Source: a virus
Taxonomy: Duplodnaviria > Heunggongvirae > Uroviricota > Caudoviricetes
Strand: one strand, 5' to 3'
DNA length: 18,817 nt
Virus record (IMG/VR): IMGVR_UViG_2563366863_000004
The notes beneath the pieces are model-generated. The model did no database searches. It saw only the letters and a program-made list of their open reading frames with translations, and was not told the origin of the DNA. The position numbers and the translations under genes were made by a program. The number at the start of each line of letters is the position of its first letter. The first letter of the stretch is position 1. This document shows, piece by piece, positions 8,531 through 18,817 of this stretch.

Positions 8531-8544
8531 AAAGAATAAAAAAA

Positions 8545-8576
8545 TCCCGCAGTGATCGCGGACAGGAACTGCGGGA
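8545..8576 (-). terminator. Hairpin with a T-tract on the minus strand (candidate intrinsic terminator for a leftward transcript)
   Basis: 8-bp stem tCCCGCAG (8545-8552) / CTGCGGGa (8569-8576) with a 16-nt loop. On the minus strand it is followed by ATTTTTTTATTCTTTTT (complement of 8531-8544). The loop is large, so confidence is low. Confidence 0.3.
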
Positions 8577-8740
8577 GAGTTACGAAGATTAAGTGTAAGG
8601 AATTATTCTTATATCACGACAAAAAAATTAACGCAGAGAAATTATACGCGCCACAGTCAGTGTGTGAAAATGTGAAGATATTCAGAATTTTTATGCCATT
8701 ACCGGTTTTAACCAACAGGATTATCGGTGGGCATGAAAGA

Positions 8741-8776
8741 AAACCCCGGTATCTGCTGATACCGGGGTTTCTCTTT
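8741..8776. terminator. Perfect 12-bp hairpin flanked by U-rich tracts on both strands (possible bidirectional terminator)
   Basis: AAACCCCGGTAT (8741-8752), loop ctgctg, ATACCGGGGTTT (8759-8770). + strand tail is ctcttt; minus-strand tail is ttttctttc. Confidence 0.35.
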
Positions 8777-8873
8777 AGCATGGCAGAAATGTGTTTCATG
8801 CTTTTCGGGCGAAGGATATCCGACTTCTGTACGGAATGGCAAGTGGCGGTTAATTTATTCAGGGGAAGGCTGT

Positions 8874-11800
8874 ATGGGAAAAGGTGGCGGTAAGGCACAC
8901 ACGCCTCGTGAGGCGAAGGATAATCTCAAATCCACGCAGATGATGAGTGTGATTGATGCGATTGGTGAGGGACCGATAGAAGGTCCGGTGAAGGGACTGC
9001 AGAGTATTCTGGTGAACAAAACCCCGCTGACGGACACGGACGGTAATCCCGTGATACACGGTGTGACCGCGGTCTGGCGTGCCGGGGAGCAGGAGCAGAC
9101 ACCACCGGAAGGCTTTGAGTCCTCCGGAGCTGAAACCGGACTGGGCGTGGAAGTGACGAAGGCAAAACCGGTGACGCGCACCATTACGTCCGCGAACATT
9201 GACCGCCTGCGGGTTACCTTCGGGGTGCAGTCACTGGTGGAGACCACCTCAAAGGGTGACCGTAACCCGGCAACCGTCCGCCTGCTGATTCAGTTACAGC
9301 GTAACGGTAACTGGGTGACAGAAAAGGACGTCACCATTAACGGCAAGACCACCTCACAGTTCCTGGCCTCGGTGATTCTGGATAATCTGCCTCCCCGGCC
9401 CTTTAACATCCGGATGGTCAGGGAGACGGCGGACAGCACCACGGACCAGCTGCAGAATAAGACGCTGTGGTCGTCATACACCGAAATCATCGATGTGAAA
9501 CAGTGCTACCCGAACACGGCCATTGTGGGGCTGCAGGTGGATGCGGAGCAGTTCGGCGGCCAGCAGATGACGGTGAACTACCATATCCGCGGTCGTATCA
9601 TCCAGGTGCCGTCAAACTATGACCCGGAAAAACGCACGTACAGTGGTATCTGGGACGGCAGTCTGAAACCGGCATACAGCAACAACCCGGCCTGGTGCCT
9701 GTGGGACATGCTGACTCACCCGCGCTACGGCATGGGAAAACGTCTGGGGGCGGCGGATGTGGACAAGTGGGCGCTGTATGCCATCGGGCAGTACTGCGAT
9801 CAGACGGTCCCGGATGGTTTCGGGGGGACCGAGCCGCGGATGACCTTTAATGCGTACCTGGCACAACAGCGTAAGGCGTGGGACGTTCTCAGTGATTTCT
9901 GCTCTGCGATGCGCTGTATGCCGGTATGGAACGGTCAGACGCTGACGTTCGTTCAGGACCGCCCGTCGGATGTGGTGTGGCCGTACACCAACAGCGATGT
10001 GGTGGTGGATGATAACGGCGTGGGATTCCGCTACAGCTTCAGTGCCCTGAAGGACCGGCACACGGCGGTGGAGGTGAATTACACCGACCCGCAGAACGGC
10101 TGGCAGACCTCCACGGAACTGGTGGAAGACCCGGAAGCCATACTGCGCTACGGGCGCAATCTGCTGAAGATGGACGCGTTCGGCTGTACCAGCCGCGGTC
10201 AGGCCCACCGTGCCGGACTGTGGGTGATAAAGACCGAACTGCTGGAAACGCAGACGGTGGACTTCACGCTCGGGTCTCAGGGGCTGCGGCACACACCCGG
10301 TGACATTATTGAAATCTGTGATAATGACTATGCCGGGACCCTGACCGGCGGACGTGTCCTGTCCATTGATGCTGCCACCCGCACCCTGACGCTGGACCGT
10401 GAGGTTACCCTGCCGGAGACAGGTACATCGGCGGTGAACCTGATTAACGGCAGCGGTAAGCCGGTGAGTGTGGACATCACCGCACACCCCGCGCCGGACC
10501 GGATACAGGTCAGTACCCTGCCTGATGGTGTGGAGACATACGGGGTGTGGGGACTCTCCCTGCCGTCACTGCGCCGTCGCCTGTTCCGCTGTGTCTCCGT
10601 CCGGGAAAACACGGACGGCACCTTTGCCATCACGGCGGTGCAGCACGTACCGGAAAAAGAAGCCATCGTGGATAACGGTGCCCGCTTTGAGCCGCAGTCA
10701 GGTTCCCTGAACAGCGTCATCCCACCGGCAGTGCAGCACCTGACGGTGGAGGTGAGCGCAGCTGACGGCCAGTATCTGGCGCAGGCGAAATGGGACACGC
10801 CGCGGGTGGTGAAGGGTGTGCGCTTCAGTCTGCGTCTGACCAGCGGAAGCGGAGAAGACAGCCGTCTGGTGAGCACCGCCAGCACCGCAGACACGGAGCA
10901 CCGTTTCAGCGGCCTGCCACTGGGGGAATACACCCTGACGGTCAGGGCGATTAACAGTTATGGCCAGCAGGGCGAACCGGCCACCACCACGTTCAGGATT
11001 AACGCACCTGCAAAACCCGCCACCATTGAGCTGACGCCGGGGTATTTTCAGATAACGGCGGTCCCGCGTCTTGCGGTGTATGACCCGACGGTACAGTTTG
11101 AATTCTGGTTCTCAGAAAAACGCATCACGAACACAGCACAGGTGGAAAAATCTGCCCGTTATCTGGGGACCGGCAGTCAGTGGACTGTCCATGGGAGCCG
11201 GATTAAGCCGGGGACGGATTTCTGGTTTTACGTGCGAAGCGTCAACCTGGTGGGAAAATCTGCTTTTGTGGAAGCCAGCGGGCAGCCCAGCAATGATGGT
11301 GAAGGGTATCTGGAAATTTTCCGGGGGCTGATAGATGAGACGCTTCTGGGCCAGGCACTGAAAGAGCGCATTGATGCTTCAGCGCTGCGTACGGAGGTCA
11401 CGCAACTGGAAGAAGACATCCGTCAGCGGATGGACACGGATATCGCAGAAGTGACCCGGAAAATCGGGAAGGCGGAAAACAGCCTCACGCAGCTGGTTGC
11501 GAAAAAGAATGAGGACCAGACACTGGCCATCGCGCAGGTGAGCCAGAAAGTGGACCGGGTGAGCAGTGAAATCTCACAGACTGTCAGCCAGGGGCAGTCA
11601 GAAAACGCCCGACAGATAGCACAGGTCCGCCAGTACGTGGATAAAAAAGGGAGTGAAATTACCTCGACCACGGATAAAAAGCTGGGTGACCAGGCCGTGA
11701 CCATACAGCAAATCCAGCGGGTTCAGTCAGACACGCGCAATGAGCTGAATGCCATGTATATGCTGAAGGTGCAGAAAACAAAAAACGGTATTCCCTATGT

Positions 11801-12566
11801 GGCCGGGATTGGCGCGGGGATTGAGGATGTTGATGGTCAGACGCTGAGCAGTATTCTGCTGCAGGCGGACCGTATCGCGATGATTACCCCGGAGAACGGC
11901 AACACCACGCCGCTGTTTGTGGCGCAGGGGAATCAGCTGTTCATGAACGACGTGTTCCTGAAGCGACTGTTTGCGGTGAGCATCACGTCATCCGGCAATC
12001 CTCCTACGTTTTCCCTGACGCCGGATGGCAGGCTGACAGCCCGCAATGCGGATATCAGTGGAGCCATCACGGCGAATACCGGCACGCTCAATAATGTCAC
12101 CATTAACGAGAACTGTGTCATCAGAGGGAAACTGTCTGCAAACCAGATTGAAGGCGATCTCGTTAAAACAGTGGGTAAGGTTTTCCCCCGTGACTCCCGT
12201 GCACCGGAGCGTTGGCCATCAGGAACCATTACCGTCAGGGTTTATGACGATCAGCCGTTTAACCGGCAGATTGTTATTCCGGCGGTGGCTTTCAGCGGTG
12301 CCAGACATGAGCGGGAGAACAGCGATACTTATTCGTCATGCCGCCTGATAGTACGGAAAAACGGTGCTGAAATTTATAACCGTACCGCGCTGGATAATAC
12401 GCTGATTTACAGTGGTGTTATTGATATGCCTGCTGGTCGCGGCCACATGACGCTGGAGTTTTCTGTATCAGCATGGTGGGTAAATGGCTGGTATCCCACA
12501 GCAAGTATCAGCGATTTGCTGGTTGTTGTGATGAAGAAAGCCACTGCAGGCATCACGATTAGCTGA
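8874..12566 (+). CDS. J: Central tail fibre / host specificity protein J
   Basis: 1230-aa ORF with an AGGGGAAGG SD. N-terminus [39 protein letters not shown] matches lambda gpJ closely. Fibronectin-III-like middle, coiled-coil segment, C-terminal receptor-binding region. Confidence 0.95.
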
Positions 12567-13370: not shown

Positions 13371-13729
13371 ATTGGTGGAAAAGTATGACAGTAAAAATTT
13401 CTGGCGTGCTTAAAGATGGCACAGGAAAACCAGTACAGAACTGCACCATTGTGCTGAAGGCCAGACGAACCAGCAGCACGGTGGTGGTGAACACGGTGGC
13501 CTCTGAAAATCCGGATGAAGCCGGACGTTACAGCATGGATGTTGAGCATGGTCAGTACAGCGTCACCCTGCTGGTTGAAGGTTTTCCGCCTTCACATGCC
13601 GGGACCATTACCGTCTATGAAGGTTCCAGACCAGGTACGCTGAATGATTTTCTCGGTGCCATGACGGAGGATGATGTCCGACCGGAGGCACTGCGCCGCT
13701 TTGAGCAGATGGTGGAAGAGGTGTCACGT

Positions 13730-14760
13730 AACGCCTCCGCGGTTGCACAGAATACGGCAGCCGCGAAAAAATCAGCCAGCGATGCCAGTGCATCAGCCAG
13801 CGAGGCGGCAACTCATGCAACCGATGCTGCAGCCTCAGCACGTGCCGCCAGCACGTCAGCCGGACAGGCCGCGTCGTCGGCTCAGTCAGCGTCTTCCAGC
13901 GCAGGAACGGCATCGACAAAGGCCCGTGAAGCAGCAAAAAGTGCTGCTGCTGCAGAGTCATCAAAAAGCGCGGCAGCTACCAGCGCCAGTGCCGCGAAAA
14001 CGTCAGAAACGAATGCCGCAGCATCACAAAAATCGGCAGCCACTTCTGCATCCACAGCGACCACGAAGGCGTCAGAAGCTGCCACCTCGGCACGGGGTGC
14101 GGCGGCCTCAAAAGAGGCAGCGAAATCTTCAGAAACGAATGCATCATCAAGTGCCAGTAGTGCAGCTTCCTCGGCAACGGCGGCAGGAAATTCCGCGAAG
14201 GCGGCAAAAACGTCCGAGACGAACGCTAAGTCTTCTGAAACAGCAGCGGGACAGAGCGCCTCAGCTGCGGCAGGTTCAAAAACAGCGGCTGCATTATCTG
14301 CCAGTGCCGCGTCAACAAGTGCCGGGCAGGCCTCAGCCAGTGCCACCGCCGCCGGAAAATCGGCAGAAAGCGCCGCATCATCCGCTTCAACAGCCACAAC
14401 GAAAGCTGGCAAAGCCACTGAGCAAGCCACTGCAGCAGCGAGGTCTGCTTCTGCAGCAAAAACCTCTGAAACAAATGCAAAGACTTCAGCAGACAATGCT
14501 GCTTCCTCTAAGGCGGCAGCCGCATCGTCAGCCAGTTCAGCGGCGTCATCGGCATCATCTGCGTCTGCTTCAAAAGATGAGGCGACCAGACAAGCGTCAG
14601 CAGCGAAAGGTAGTGCCACGACAGCAACAACGAAAGCATCAGAGGCGGCAGGCAGTGCGACGGCTGCATCTCAGAGCAAAGTTGCTGCTGAATCCGCGGC
14701 AACGCGCGCCGAGACAGCAGCAAAACGGGCAGAGGATATTGCATCCGCCGTGGCGCTGGA
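13730..14760 (+). repeat. Degenerate tandem Ala/Ser/Thr-rich repeats inside stf (approximate bounds)
   Basis: Recurring ...SAAKTSETNA... / ...KSSETNASSSASSAASSA... units, with recurring nucleotide cores such as aaaacgtcagaaacgaatgc, aaatcttcagaaacgaatgc, aaaacgtccgagacgaacgc and aaaacctctgaaacaaatgc. They create long spurious ORFs in the other frames. Confidence 0.5.
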
Positions 14761-14932
14761 GGATGCGAGCACGACGAAAAAGGGGATAGTACAGCTCAGC
14801 AGTGCAACAAACAGCACCAGTGAAAAGCTGGCGGCAACGCCAAAGGCAGTTAAAACTGTTAAAGATAGTTCAGTTCAAAAAACTGGCGACACAATGGGAG
14901 GGCAGTTAAAAATCAGCACGATAAATGCTCTT

Positions 14933-14940
14933 CGAATATT
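14933..14940. repeat. Target-site duplication (left copy) flanking IS1: cgaatatt
   Basis: The 8 bp immediately before the IS1 end (14933-14940) are identical to the 8 bp immediately after it (15709-15716). Confidence 0.75.
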
Positions 14941-14955
14941 GGTAATGACTCCAAC

Positions 14956-15459
14956 TTACTGATAGTGTTTTATGTTCAGATAATGCCCGATGACTTTGTC
15001 ATGCAGCTCCACCGATTTTGAGAACGACAGTGACTTCCGTCCCAGCCTTGCCAGATGTTGTCTCAGATTCAGGTTATGTCGCTCAATGCGCTGAGTGTAA
15101 CGCTTGCTGATTACGTGCAGCTTTCCCTTCAGGCGGGATTCATACAGCGGCCAGCCATCCGTCATCCATACCACGACCTCAAAGGCCGACAGCAGGCTCA
15201 GAAGACGCTCCAGTGTGGCCAGAGTGCGTTCACCGAAGACGTGCGCCACAACCGTCCTCCGTATCCTGTCATACGCGTAAAACAGCCAGCGCTGGCGCGA
15301 TTTAGCCCCGACATAGCCCCACTGTTCGCCCATTTCCGCGCAGACGATGACGTCACTGCCCGGCTGTATGCGCGAGGTTACCGACTGCGGCCTGAGTTTT
15401 TTAAGTGACGTAAAATCGTGTTGAGGCCAACGCCCATAATGCGGGCGGTTGCCCGGCAT
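14956..15459 (-). CDS. insB: IS1 InsB (transposase catalytic part; expressed as InsAB' by -1 frameshift)
   Basis: 167-aa [40 protein letters not shown]... The TTAAAAAACTC frameshift motif is on the minus strand (complement of 15394-15404), just upstream of the insA stop. Confidence 0.88.
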
Positions 15460-15653
15460 CCAACACCATTCATGGCCATATCAATGATTTTCTGGTGTGT
15501 ACCGGGTTGAGAAGCGGTGTAAGTGAACTGCAGTTGCCATGTTTTACGGCAGTGAGAGCAGAGATAGCGCTGATGTCCGGCAGTACTTTTACCGTTACGC
15601 ACCACGCCTTCAGTAGCTGAGCAGGAGGGACAACTGATGGAGATGGAAGCCAC
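15378..15653 (-). CDS. insA: IS1 InsA (DNA-binding regulator / N-terminal part of transposase)
   Basis: 91 aa, [91 protein letters not shown], essentially canonical IS1 InsA with its Zn-finger cysteines. Confidence 0.92.
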
Positions 15654-15708
15654 GGGAGCACCTCAAAAACACCATCATACACTAAATCAGTAAGTTGGCA
15701 CCATTACC

Positions 15709-15716: not shown

Positions 15717-17187
15717 CAACCAAGCCTTTGGCCTTATTTTTAGGCGTTCCGAAGATCATCTTCATCTTATTCCGACTAATGAAGGGGAGGGGGAAAATGG
15801 AGACATCGGTTCATTAAGACCATTCTCTATAAACTTAAGATCAGGGTTGGTGTCCATCGGTAATGGACTAAAAGTTGGTGGTAGTGTTACTGGTAATTTG
15901 ACCGGAAACGCAGATACTGCGACCAAGATCAAGACAGCACGTAAGATTGGGGGCGTGGCATTTGATGGATCGGCAGATATCAACTTGCCTGGAGTCAACG
16001 CTACCGGTAATCAAAACACTACAGGTAATGCTGCGACCGCCACGAAACTTCAGGCAGCCAGAACGATTAACGGTGTGTCATTTGATGGTAGTGCAAATAT
16101 CACATTGACCCCTTCAAATATTGGGGCATTGGCATTAACTGGAGGGACTCTTTCAGGTGGTTTAACTGCTGCTGGTGAGGTTATTTCAAGGTCAGCAAAT
16201 GGTCTGCGTATTGCCTATGGCAACTATGGATTCTTTATCCGAAATGATGGATCAAACACATATTTTATGTTGACAGATTCGGGTAACAGTCTTGGTACGC
16301 ACAATAGCTTAAGGCCGTTTATAATTAGTAACCATACTGGCAATGTTACAATTGCAACTAAATTAAACGCGAGTGGTGGTATCACTGGATCTTTATCGGG
16401 TAATGCAAGCACAGCAACCAAATTGCAAACTGCAAGGACAATTAACGGCGTAAAATTTGACGGCTCGGCAAATATTGAAGCGTTTCCGCCAGGTGTTCCG
16501 CTGCCGTGGCCATCAGATACACCACCTGCAGGTTATGCGATCATGCAGGGGCAGACGTTTGATAAGGCAGCATATCCGAAACTGGCTATTGCCTATCCTT
16601 CAGGTGTTATTCCAGATATGCGCGGCTGGACAATCAAGGGCAAACCCGCCAGTGGCCGGGCCGTATTGTCTCAGGAACAGGACGGCATAAAATCGCACAC
16701 CCACAGCGCCAGCGCATCCAGTACGGATTTGGGGACGAAAACCACATCGTCGTTTGATTACGGCACTAAATCCACGAATAACACCGGGGCGCATACGCAC
16801 AGTCTGAGTGGCTCTACGGGGTCTGCCGGTGTTCATACTCATGGTAATGGTATTCGTTGGCCAGGAGGCGGCGGTTCTGCGTTAGCATTTTATGATGGCG
16901 GTGGGTTCACTTATGTCCAGAATTCACAGTATCAAGTAAGCCCGGAGACTTCTTCCTATAGATCGTATTATCAACGTATTCAGACACAGTCAGCAGGTGC
17001 TCATACCCACTCGCTGTCTGGAACTGCAGCAAGTTCTGGCGCACATGCACATACTGTAGGTATTGGTGCGCATACGCACTCCGTTGCGATTGGTTCACAT
17101 GGACACACCATCACCGTTAACGCTGCGGGTAACGCGGAAAACACCGTCAAAAACATCGCATTTAACTATATTGTGAGGCTTGCATAA
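15717..17187 (+). pseudogene. stf: Side tail fibre protein Stf, 3' portion (distal, receptor-binding part with His-rich repeats)
   Basis: Frame is open from the IS1 junction to TAA at 17185-17187 and is in phase with the 5' part once IS1 plus one 8-bp repeat copy are removed. Product ...[35 protein letters not shown]... ends with repeated HxH motifs ([35 protein letters not shown]). Confidence 0.8.
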
Positions 17188-17825: not shown

Positions 17826-18494
17826 CTATTTTTTCCCTGAAGCGGAAAACATTACTACAGTACCTTGAACCTTGGTTTTAACATTCTCGAAATGCTCTGA
17901 GAGTATATGTGTTAAGCCTTCTTCGGAATCTTTTGTGTTTGAAAAGATGCCTTTCTGATTGTAAATGCGCATCAGTTTTTGACCGAAGCTATTGTGCACA
18001 ACTCCATCGCCAAGAATTGTGGCTCCGTATAGAGTTCCATCGTCAGTTAAGGCCTGCGCCGCATTGCGTATTACACAGCTTTTTGTAGATATATTTCCAG
18101 GCAGGCAGTGAAGAAGGTAAAACATGGAAATGGAATCAAATTGACCATGTAACGCCGCGGGATAAGGTTCAAAAACATCATGGCTAATTTTATGTTTAAT
18201 TTTTGATTCCCCAGCCCTTGTAGATGCCGCGTTCAGGCTAGCTTCGTTCAAATCCATTAAAGATATCAGACTACTCTCAGGTACGTGAGTAAGGTAAAAC
18301 CCAGTTCCAACACCAATATCCAGATGGTTGTTACCTACATGTTCCAGAAAGTGTGGAAGAAGGTGTTCCTTTGTAGGACATCCCCATGCAAGCCGATTTG
18401 ATACTCCCAAAACCCACCAGTCATAAAGCTTTAGGGTAAGTGGTGTGTAAATTTTAGCCCCATCATCTGTGTTTTTTTTCATTGATTTCACCAT
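17826..18494 (-). CDS. Class I SAM-dependent methyltransferase (moron, unknown substrate)
   Basis: 222-aa ORF on the opposite strand from the tail genes. Motif-I-like LDIGVGTGFY fits a Rossmann-fold AdoMet methyltransferase. Region is visibly AT-richer than the tail genes. An alternative start at 18482 (MKKNTDD...) has a better GGTGA SD. The arrangement resembles the tfaD-ybcY-tfaX layout I recall from E. coli K-12 DLP12; this is from memory and unverified. Confidence 0.75.
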   Translation of the reverse strand: MVKSMKKNTDDGAKIYTPLTLKLYDWWVLGVSNRLAWGCPTKEHLLPHFLEHVGNNHLDIGVGTGFYLTHVPESSLISLMDLNEASLNAASTRAGESKIKHKISHDVFEPYPAALHGQFDSISMFYLLHCLPGNISTKSCVIRNAAQALTDDGTLYGATILGDGVVHNSFGQKLMRIYNQKGIFSNTKDSEEGLTHILSEHFENVKTKVQGTVVMFSASGKK

Positions 18495-18550: not shown

Positions 18551-18817
18551 ATGCTGCCGCAGCATAGCGATATTGAAATAGCCTGGTATGCTTCGATACA
18601 GCAGGAGCCGAATGACTGGAAGACCGTCACCACACAGTTCCACATCCAGGAATTCAGTGAGTATATTGCGCCACTGCAGGATGCTGTAGATCTGGAAATC
18701 GCAACGGCGGAAGAAAGATCGTTGCTGGAGGCATGGAATAAATATCGGGTATTGTTGAATCGTGTTGATACATCAACTGCACCTGATATTGAGTGGCCGA
18801 CTTCACCTGCAGAGTAA
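18551..18817 (+). CDS. Short Tfa-like protein or tfa gene fragment (Tfa C-terminal domain with an unrelated 35-aa N-terminus)
   Basis: 88-aa ORF with a strong AAGGGG SD. Its C-terminal 53 aa ([53 protein letters not shown]) are near-identical to the Tfa C-terminus; the N-terminal [35 protein letters not shown] has no counterpart in Tfa. Stop is at the window end. Confidence 0.6.
18656..18817. repeat. Direct repeat copy 2: tfa 3' end
   Basis: See copy 1 at 17607-17771; the two copies bracket the minus-strand methyltransferase gene. Confidence 0.7.

Follow-up and report, generated by a model that had tools for sequence, protein, structure and literature searches.

How does the tail tip protein of a lambda-like phage come to be some hundred residues longer than that of lambda, and what would the change mean for the cell surface that the phage recognizes? 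The question is raised by a window of 18,817 nucleotides, the whole stretch of viral DNA analysed here (IMG/VR record IMGVR_UViG_2563366863_000004, Caudoviricetes), which carries gene J of a lambda-like Escherichia coli prophage, encoding the tip attachment or central tail fibre protein. By cryo-electron microscopy, the C-terminal portion of lambda gpJ comprises four pieces, namely a pair of FNIII domains, the alpha-helical shaft, a prism of beta-sheet and a receptor-binding domain with an Ig-like fold (PMC11101478). The shaft, residues 809–861, is a three-helix bundle that flips when LamB is bound, and residues 841–861 then pass from helix to strand (PMC11101478). A preliminary description of the window, drawn from its letters, held that J contains a coiled-coil-like insertion and a diverged C terminus, and that the phage may use a receptor other than LamB. 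The analysis below places the additional residues in a shaft of repeated 29-residue units. The protein as a whole is read, as probable with some reserve, as a long, straight, trimeric helical spacer that ends in a tip binding the porin OmpC.

The additional residues lie in the helical shaft

The reading frame of J is open and intact and encodes 1230 residues, compared with 1132 in lambda J (NC_001416), which bears out the claim of a difference of about 100. BLASTP matches the two proteins with E = 0 in two blocks (window J residues 1–854 against lambda 1–854, 72% identity; 939–1230 against 840–1131, 50%). Scanned side by side, both proteins carry the same Pfam domains in the same order, namely FNIII-A_GpJ, Phage-tail_3, Ig_J, Ig_J_second, Phage_Tail_Tip and Ig_GpJ_C, all six above the curated cut-offs. 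In window J, FNIII-A_GpJ spans residues 86–207, Phage-tail_3 residues 331–492 and Phage_Tail_Tip residues 944–1071, and Ig_GpJ_C is matched at 9e-37; the beta-prism part also matches the solved lambda chains 8xcj and 8iyk. By homology to the solved lambda J trimers, the product would form the trimer that closes the tail tip and extends as the central fibre.

A global alignment against lambda J leaves 101 residues (36 + 65) unmatched at window J residues 835–938, and three single-residue gaps in the opposite direction bring the net difference to +98. The unmatched residues fall between lambda residues 836 and 840, inside the alpha-helical shaft of lambda. In nucleotide coordinates they lie at 11376–11687, within the segment of about 11310–11770 to which the extra length had been ascribed. 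The shaft of window J is approximately 157 residues long as opposed to 53 in lambda, which makes it about three times longer.

In the same alignment, identity to lambda is 74% over residues 1–800 (77% over 1–608), 58% over 939–1071 and 40% over 1100–1230, and the beta-prism part is 58–61% identical to lambda 840–1000. The N-terminal 800 residues can be aligned with those of lambda, as had been proposed, but to follow lambda "closely" means 74% identity here and not near-identity. The divergence of the C terminus is confirmed: the last 150 residues are 41.3% identical to lambda, clearly below 90%. The landmark IVDMPAGRG quoted for this region is the lambda form; window J reads VIDMPAGRG, with DMPAGRG common to both. 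Overall, lambda gpJ (P03749; PDB 8iyk, 8xcj, 8xcg) resembles window J in gene position, in its six Pfam domains and in alignment from end to end, and differs from it in its 53-residue shaft, its single 29-residue unit, its tip-domain class and its receptor, which is LamB.

The shaft is built from 29-residue units

Autocorrelation with BLOSUM62 over residues 815–975 peaks at lags of 29 (z = 6.3) and 58 residues (z = 4.3), and the top score for two units aligned without gaps is 48, whereas 200 shuffles reach no more than 40. The unit heads IAEV, IAQV, IAQV and IQQI recur at an exact spacing of 29 residues and mark four tandem units, the last of which (residues 944–972) corresponds to lambda 845–873. 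By head count in the aligned shafts, lambda has one unit, phage 21 two and window J four, and the E. coli fragments P0078 and P0135 have five and six, respectively. Shafts among the fetched proteins fall into length classes of 79, 107, 180, 216, 249 and 278 residues, counted from where the last FNIII domain ends up to the YVAGIG motif, with class counts biased by the queries used; the shaft protein search returned almost only short fragments, which are useful for variants and not as full-length proteins. A description of such a copy-number series, from one to six 29-residue repeats in lambda-type shafts, was not found in the literature searched, and the series is the point of some interest here.

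The repeat is visible only in the protein, and Tandem Repeats Finder detected no DNA-level repeat between positions 11200 and 11900. Because a DNA-level repeat is missing and the units have diverged, the copies are judged to be old. Exact duplications occur in other E. coli J fragments: a stretch of approximately 54 residues is repeated in P0011, and a 28-residue stretch is repeated in P0195, which has a non-Ig tip at its end. These duplications may be true products of unequal recombination or assembly errors in short contigs.

The preliminary description had called the segment coiled-coil-like and heptad-like. It is indeed amphipathic and helical, but the heptad pattern is only partly right. 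In the hydrophobicity spectrum, a single period of 3.65 residues dominates the insert; none of 500 shuffles reaches it, and the same period extends across the whole shaft, residues 809–965 (p = 0.022 against shuffles). This value equals 29/8, that is, eight helical turns per unit. A heptad test in 28-residue windows exceeds the 99% null only at starts 822–824 and 846–853 (covering residues 822–880), and the 3.5-residue period that a canonical heptad coiled coil holds over many heptads is not kept by the shaft. With a period of 3.65 residues, the helices would run almost straight in their bundle instead of winding into the canonical left-handed heptad coil.

Proline is absent from residues 809–960, and glycines occur at 865, 907, 926 and 938. 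An AlphaFold2 monomer of residues 800–1230, built on a 15-row alignment and used for secondary structure only (mean predicted local distance difference test score [pLDDT] 54.6, predicted TM-score 0.31), contains helices at 809–822 and 824–965 (pLDDT of approximately 60–76) and folds the last 130 residues as a beta sandwich (pLDDT of approximately 60–80). The beta-prism is disordered in this model, which is to be expected of a single chain from an intertwined trimer. Taken together, the model, the lack of proline, the period and the lambda-shaft flanks describe an unbroken amphipathic helix that leads from the last FNIII domain to the beta-prism.

Comparison with F-type pyocins

The central fibre proteins of the F2 and F7 pyocins are J homologues (PMC13455828, PMC12874032). 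The F2 pyocin has an "exceptionally long" three-stranded coiled-coil shaft, in which a glycine kink docks three side-fibre trimers (PMC13455828; PDB 25vf), and the shaft query matched the F2-pyocin fibre region holding this shaft weakly (E = 0.003). In the F7 pyocin, a trimeric coiled coil of 163 residues refolds to a beta-prism on cell contact, a change needed for killing (PMC12874032). The motif SxSxxMxxLxS marks the switching strands in F7, and comparable switches have been predicted for 21 of 24 fibre proteins from siphophages; lambda, according to the same authors, is without an extensive fold switch (PMC12874032). F-type pyocin fibres have in common with window J a J-like hub followed by a long alpha-helical shaft, three-stranded in the pyocins, and then a beta-prism. 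Unlike window J, they are without an Ig-like tip domain, and the window insert shows neither the switch motif nor a sign of shaft-docked side fibres.

The F7 precedent raises the possibility that the long shaft is an energy store, in which the whole coiled coil would refold to beta-prism and more units would mean more energy and a larger contraction. The two shafts are of similar size (163 residues in F7, approximately 157 in window J), lambda residues 841–861 change from helix to strand when LamB is bound (PMC11101478), and the added units are homologous to the refolding unit of lambda. However, SxSxxMxxLxS has no match in the insert (residues 835–938) and two in the window shaft, at 942 and 950, both within the last unit (whole-shaft p = 0.25). 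The motif is not repeated in alternating orientation, whereas two Pseudomonas-type long J-like proteins used as positive controls, P0252 and P0262, contain nine matches each (p <= 0.005). Moreover, Gln, Lys and Glu abound in the added units in place of the small residues that prism corners need, and the F7 authors deny an extensive switch in lambda (PMC12874032). Refolding of the entire shaft is considered unlikely, if conceivable, and a shaft that would remain largely helical is preferred.

The tip domain and its likely receptor

A receptor other than LamB had been proposed on the ground that the C terminus differs from that of lambda. It is the best-supported reading, but divergence alone is not the reason. 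In an alignment of six J proteins, the tip domain of phage 21 is only 46% identical to that of lambda, yet the native receptor of phage 21 is LamB, and one mutation gains it the use of OmpC (PMC11336670). Because this equally diverged domain uses LamB, divergence from lambda cannot by itself indicate another receptor.

Experimental evidence comes from a close relative of the window domain. In engineered lambda particles, natural J C termini were joined to lambda J at residue 964, and the chimeras were screened on recipients lacking lamB (Eligo Bioscience; Nature 2024, PMC11338833). Two of them, A8 and 1A2, use OmpC to deliver DNA to such cells (PMC11338833; restated in a 2025 preprint). Furthermore, gpJ-1A2 works with the EDL933 allele of OmpC but not with MG1655 OmpC (PMC11338833). 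Among the 116 readable codons of the 1A2 tip domain, 101 are identical to the window and 109 to phage PhiR5_1, a match that assigns 1A2 to the PhiR5_1 type; this type and the window domain are 92% identical. By its sequence, the window tip domain belongs to this experimentally characterized class, in which the J proteins of long-tailed Stx1a and Stx2a phages are also found. It is less close to the LamB-using domains (40% identical to lambda and 62% to phage 21, compared with 92% to the OmpC-using class), a comparison of sequence and not of binding. The more distant gpJ-A8, which has a phage-21-like domain solved as PDB 9wca, also uses OmpC. Both phage 21 J (OL657228) and gpJ-A8 share the Ig_GpJ_C fold family with window J, but their shafts are shorter, and the native receptor of phage 21 is LamB whereas A8 uses OmpC. 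By analogy with the close homologue 1A2, OmpC is the most likely receptor of window J, and we hold this assignment to be rather probable. A Nature 2026 paper using the PhiR phages gives their dependence on ManYZ and does not name an outer-membrane receptor, and lambda-type tip domains fall outside the coverage of a 2026 receptor-prediction preprint.

That the receptor is LamB after all, or LamB and OmpC both as in phage 21, appears decidedly unlikely. The phage 21 domain is the closest from a natural phage with a named receptor, and the 1A2 experiments, performed on lamB-deleted recipients, leave room for LamB use. However, the 1A2-type domain is much closer to the window domain than that of phage 21, needs OmpC and discriminates between OmpC alleles, and the window tip retains only 40% identity to the LamB-binding domain of lambda.

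A mosaic gene with a shared fibre module

The six aligned J proteins were also compared with window J by region. Over residues 1–808, window J is 95% identical to PhiR5_1, 78% to PhiR49_2 and 74% to lambda. Over residues 809–938, the values are approximately 40%, 100% and approximately 40%, respectively, and over residues 939–1099 they are 86%, 99% and 58%. In the tip domain (residues 1100–1230), identity is 97% to PhiR49_2, 92% to PhiR5_1, 62% to phage 21, 42% to lambda h434 and 40% to lambda. At the nucleotide level, sliding identity switches from PhiR5_1-like (93–100%) to PhiR49_2-like at approximately 10,850–11,034, close to where the two Ig domains meet. From approximately 11,034, where the block is 100% identical, to the end of J, identity to PhiR49_2 is 92–100% per 90-nucleotide block. 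The content of guanine plus cytosine falls from approximately 0.62 to approximately 0.54 at the junction. Genes M, L and I are PhiR5_1-like (97–100%), and the N terminus of the side fibre is PhiR49_2-like (99%). The PhiR49_2-like stretch extends from the second Ig domain of J to the stf N terminus, onward to approximately 13,300, and is patchy in lom. Judged by this pattern of identity, window J is a mosaic formed by recombination of two sources, a hub of the PhiR5_1 and long-tailed Stx-phage type and a fibre module of the PhiR49_2 type.

PhiR49_2 (PV340570) shares with window J the shaft (100%), the beta-prism (99%) and the tip domain (97%), and in PhiR40_1 (PV340560) the 120-residue insert is 100% identical to that of the window. 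However, the two hubs differ: PhiR49_2 has a lambda-like one (94% identical to lambda) and the window a PhiR5_1-like one (95%). Because the PhiR49_2-type module stands on two hub types, the fibre module has moved as a cassette between hub backgrounds. PhiR5_1 itself has a short shaft of class 107, and the J genes of long-tailed Stx1a and Stx2a phages are in many cases approximately 91% identical on both sides of the insert but are without it. PhiR49_2 and PhiR40_1 were induced from the E. coli reference (ECOR) collection, propagated on ECOR13 and are part of a temperate phage panel already in print; the PhiR phages go back to Brenes and Laub (2025). Since both phages form plaques, the long-shaft module works in plaque-forming phages.

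Among 50,697 phage records, tblastn of the insert matches only PhiR40_1 and PhiR49_2. Insert DNA is present in 726 of 5426 complete E. coli genomes (13%), CFT073 included, and identity is at least 99% in 610 of the matching E. coli records. DNA of the tip-domain class is present in 3369 of the 5426 genomes (62%), and a prophage in ATCC 25922 matches 95% of the window. A search of a representative library yielded only a few proteins that span the insert; at the sequence level the insert is confined to a small clade, joined by distant long-shaft J-like proteins of approximately 30% identity. Among the matches listed, those with an insert at least 99% identical include human, dog, cattle and water isolates, CFT073 among them, and those at approximately 90% include O145 and other Shiga toxin–producing E. 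coli as well as cheese and crow isolates.

These distributions bear on a further alternative, in which unequal recombination between the 29-residue repeats gave rise to a near-neutral length polymorphism and the number of units has no adaptive role. Prophages of E. coli harbour alleles of one, two, four, five and six units side by side, with receptor-binding domains that resemble one another, and the short-shaft J of PhiR5_1 and the Stx phages carries a receptor-binding domain 92% identical to that of the long-shaft J. Exact internal duplications, as in P0011, are likewise found in some database fragments. In contrast, the diverged units and the lack of a DNA repeat by Tandem Repeats Finder indicate that the allele is old and stable. 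The conservation of the insert (at least 99% in 610 matching records, with the protein 100% identical across two hub backgrounds) suggests that the module is maintained. A near-neutral length difference is quite unlikely on this evidence.

A proposed role for the long shaft

In the preferred reading of window J as a long helical spacer with an OmpC-binding tip, the shaft would consist of four copies of the 29-residue amphipathic, eight-turn unit that lambda has once, together with a longer first helix. The added units would form a straight three-helix spacer and lengthen the central fibre by up to approximately 15 nm, at 0.15 nm for each of the 101 residues. The Ig-like tip domain would bind trimeric OmpC and not LamB, and this binding would trigger a lambda-type opening of the tail tip. 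On opening, the prism-proximal unit would refold, and the added units would mostly stay as a spacer or "spine". We infer the trimeric coiled-coil geometry, the gain in length and the spacer role of the shaft together. That such a spacer helps the tip to reach a porin beneath O-antigen or capsule is speculation.

A side-fibre docking platform like that of the F2 pyocin (PMC13455828), for which the four glycines of the window shaft might speak, is so improbable that it was rejected: the Stf N terminus is not the OB-type domain that binds a shaft kink but a lambda-type collar domain (Pfam phage_tail_N; identity 87% to lambda, 99% to PhiR49_2) that occurs just as well alongside short shafts, the Stf-type domain in Ur-lambda is a collar at the gpV–gpM junction and not on the shaft, and the window has no pyocin-type side fibre gene. 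With docking disfavoured and the insert free of the switch motif, the helical spacer is the reading that remains.

Several observations weigh against the spacer with an OmpC-binding tip. The structural model is a monomer with a mean pLDDT of 54.6 from a shallow alignment, and it supports neither a trimer nor a straight shaft. The glycines at 865, 907, 926 and 938 could kink or break the helix, as a glycine kink does in the F2 pyocin (PMC13455828). The simple heptad test is significant only at residues 822–880. With respect to the receptor, the 1A2 DNA comes from a machine-read supplement PDF and is noisy, with 18 of 190 codons unreadable. Ten tip-domain differences separate the window from the 1A2/PhiR5_1 type, nine in predicted loops (1130, 1144–1152, 1189, 1202, 1205) and one in a strand (1103), and these could change the OmpC allele accepted or even the porin bound. 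The boundary between receptors is also thin, as phage 21, with a 62% identical tip, uses LamB and is one mutation from OmpC (PMC11336670).

A more far-reaching idea is that the copy number of the 29-residue unit, from one to six, serves as an evolvable ruler for the reach of the tip through O-antigen or capsule. Copy number might perhaps also set the refolding energy released on binding, through a coiled-coil-to-prism switch that lacks the motif. Shaft length would then be a determinant of host range apart from the receptor-binding domain. We regard this idea as doubtful.

Genomic setting

In the window, J lies downstream of the genes for the tape measure protein, M, L, K and I and upstream of lom, stf and tfa (Table 1). 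Pfam matches to Lom, the Stf N terminus and Tfa support this order, and the RefSeq annotation of the identical region in strain C7 agrees with it. The DNA of J is 100% identical over 3693 nucleotides in complete E. coli chromosomes, strains of sequence type 131 among them, where it sits in a prophage adjoining potB, potA and pepT. RefSeq names the identical protein "gpJ: phage attachment tail tip protein J" (WP_001610944.1). Window J belongs to a well-known family, as a common allele with an existing annotation, and is not a novel kind of protein.

Table 1. Positions of J, its parts and neighbouring features in the window
Feature	Residues of J	Coordinates	Strand	Basis or remark
Gene J, tip attachment / central tail fibre protein	1–1230	8874–12566	+	Open reading frame, Pfam, BLASTP, identical annotated DNA
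Hub part (FNIII-A, Phage-tail_3, other hub domains)	1–608	8874–10697	+	Pfam; PhiR5_1 / long-tailed Stx-phage type
Two Ig/FNIII domains, mosaic junction inside	609–712, 714–816	10698–11321	+	Pfam Ig_J, Ig_J_second
Alpha-helical shaft, counterpart of lambda 809–861	809–965	11298–11768	+	Lambda boundaries from PMC11101478; AlphaFold2
101 residues without lambda counterpart	835–938	11376–11687	+	Gaps in global and six-way alignments
Four tandem 29-residue units	857–885, 886–914, 915–943, 944–972	11442–11789	+	Autocorrelation
Beta-prism, "central straight fibre" part	973–1099	11790–12170	+	Pfam; matches to lambda chains
Ig-like receptor-binding domain, gpJ-1A2 / PhiR49_2 class	1100–1230	12171–12563	+	Pfam; identities
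Spacer between I and J		8531–8873		343 nucleotides
Terminator-like site in spacer		8562–8546	-	
Open reading frame in spacer		8552–8893		No PHROG match
Promoter-like site in spacer		8668–8641	-	11 of 12 matches, near consensus
Hairpin in spacer		~8738–8776		Fold z = -5.9
stf, first part		13385–14962		
IS1		~14,941–15,708		Interrupts stf
InsB		14956–15459	-	
InsA		15378–15653	-	
IS1 terminal repeat (one)		15686–15708		
stf, second part		15847–17187		
Methyltransferase gene		17826–18494	-	Class I, S-adenosylmethionine-dependent
Second tail fibre assembly gene, partial		18551–18817	+	Runs off the window end

The spacer between I and J is AT-rich and measures 343 nucleotides, as opposed to 60 in lambda. 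It contains a very stable hairpin followed by a T-rich run, and phage 21 has an annotated terminator at the equivalent position. On the minus strand, the promoter-like and terminator-like sites could frame a transcript of approximately 100 nucleotides. The spacer matches no Rfam family at threshold, and the prophage small RNA svsR is located at cI and not in this spacer. The first half of the spacer is 94% conserved in many Stx1a and Stx2c phages, where it is mostly unannotated.

Downstream of J, the insertion sequence IS1 divides stf into two parts, whereas the counterpart stf in E. coli C7 is one intact open reading frame of 1008 residues. The window copy of the prophage probably makes no side fibres, like laboratory lambda. 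The methyltransferase gene directly follows tfa, and a second, partial tail fibre assembly gene lies beyond it; the methyltransferase gene looks like cargo inserted between duplicated copies of tfa.

Implications

Window J is a modest discovery: it is common and already has an annotation, its relatives include characterized proteins, and its long shaft has precedents among J-like proteins. For annotation, the consequence is that the J tip class met most often in E. coli prophages, with its DNA in 62% of complete genomes, belongs to the OmpC-using 1A2 type and not to the textbook LamB type. Lambda-based DNA delivery vectors and host-range prediction treat the last 150–170 residues of J as the sole specificity element. 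Should the length of the shaft also affect access to porins that lie under O-antigen or capsule, the natural alleles of one to six units would be a set of ready-made parts to test and to use.

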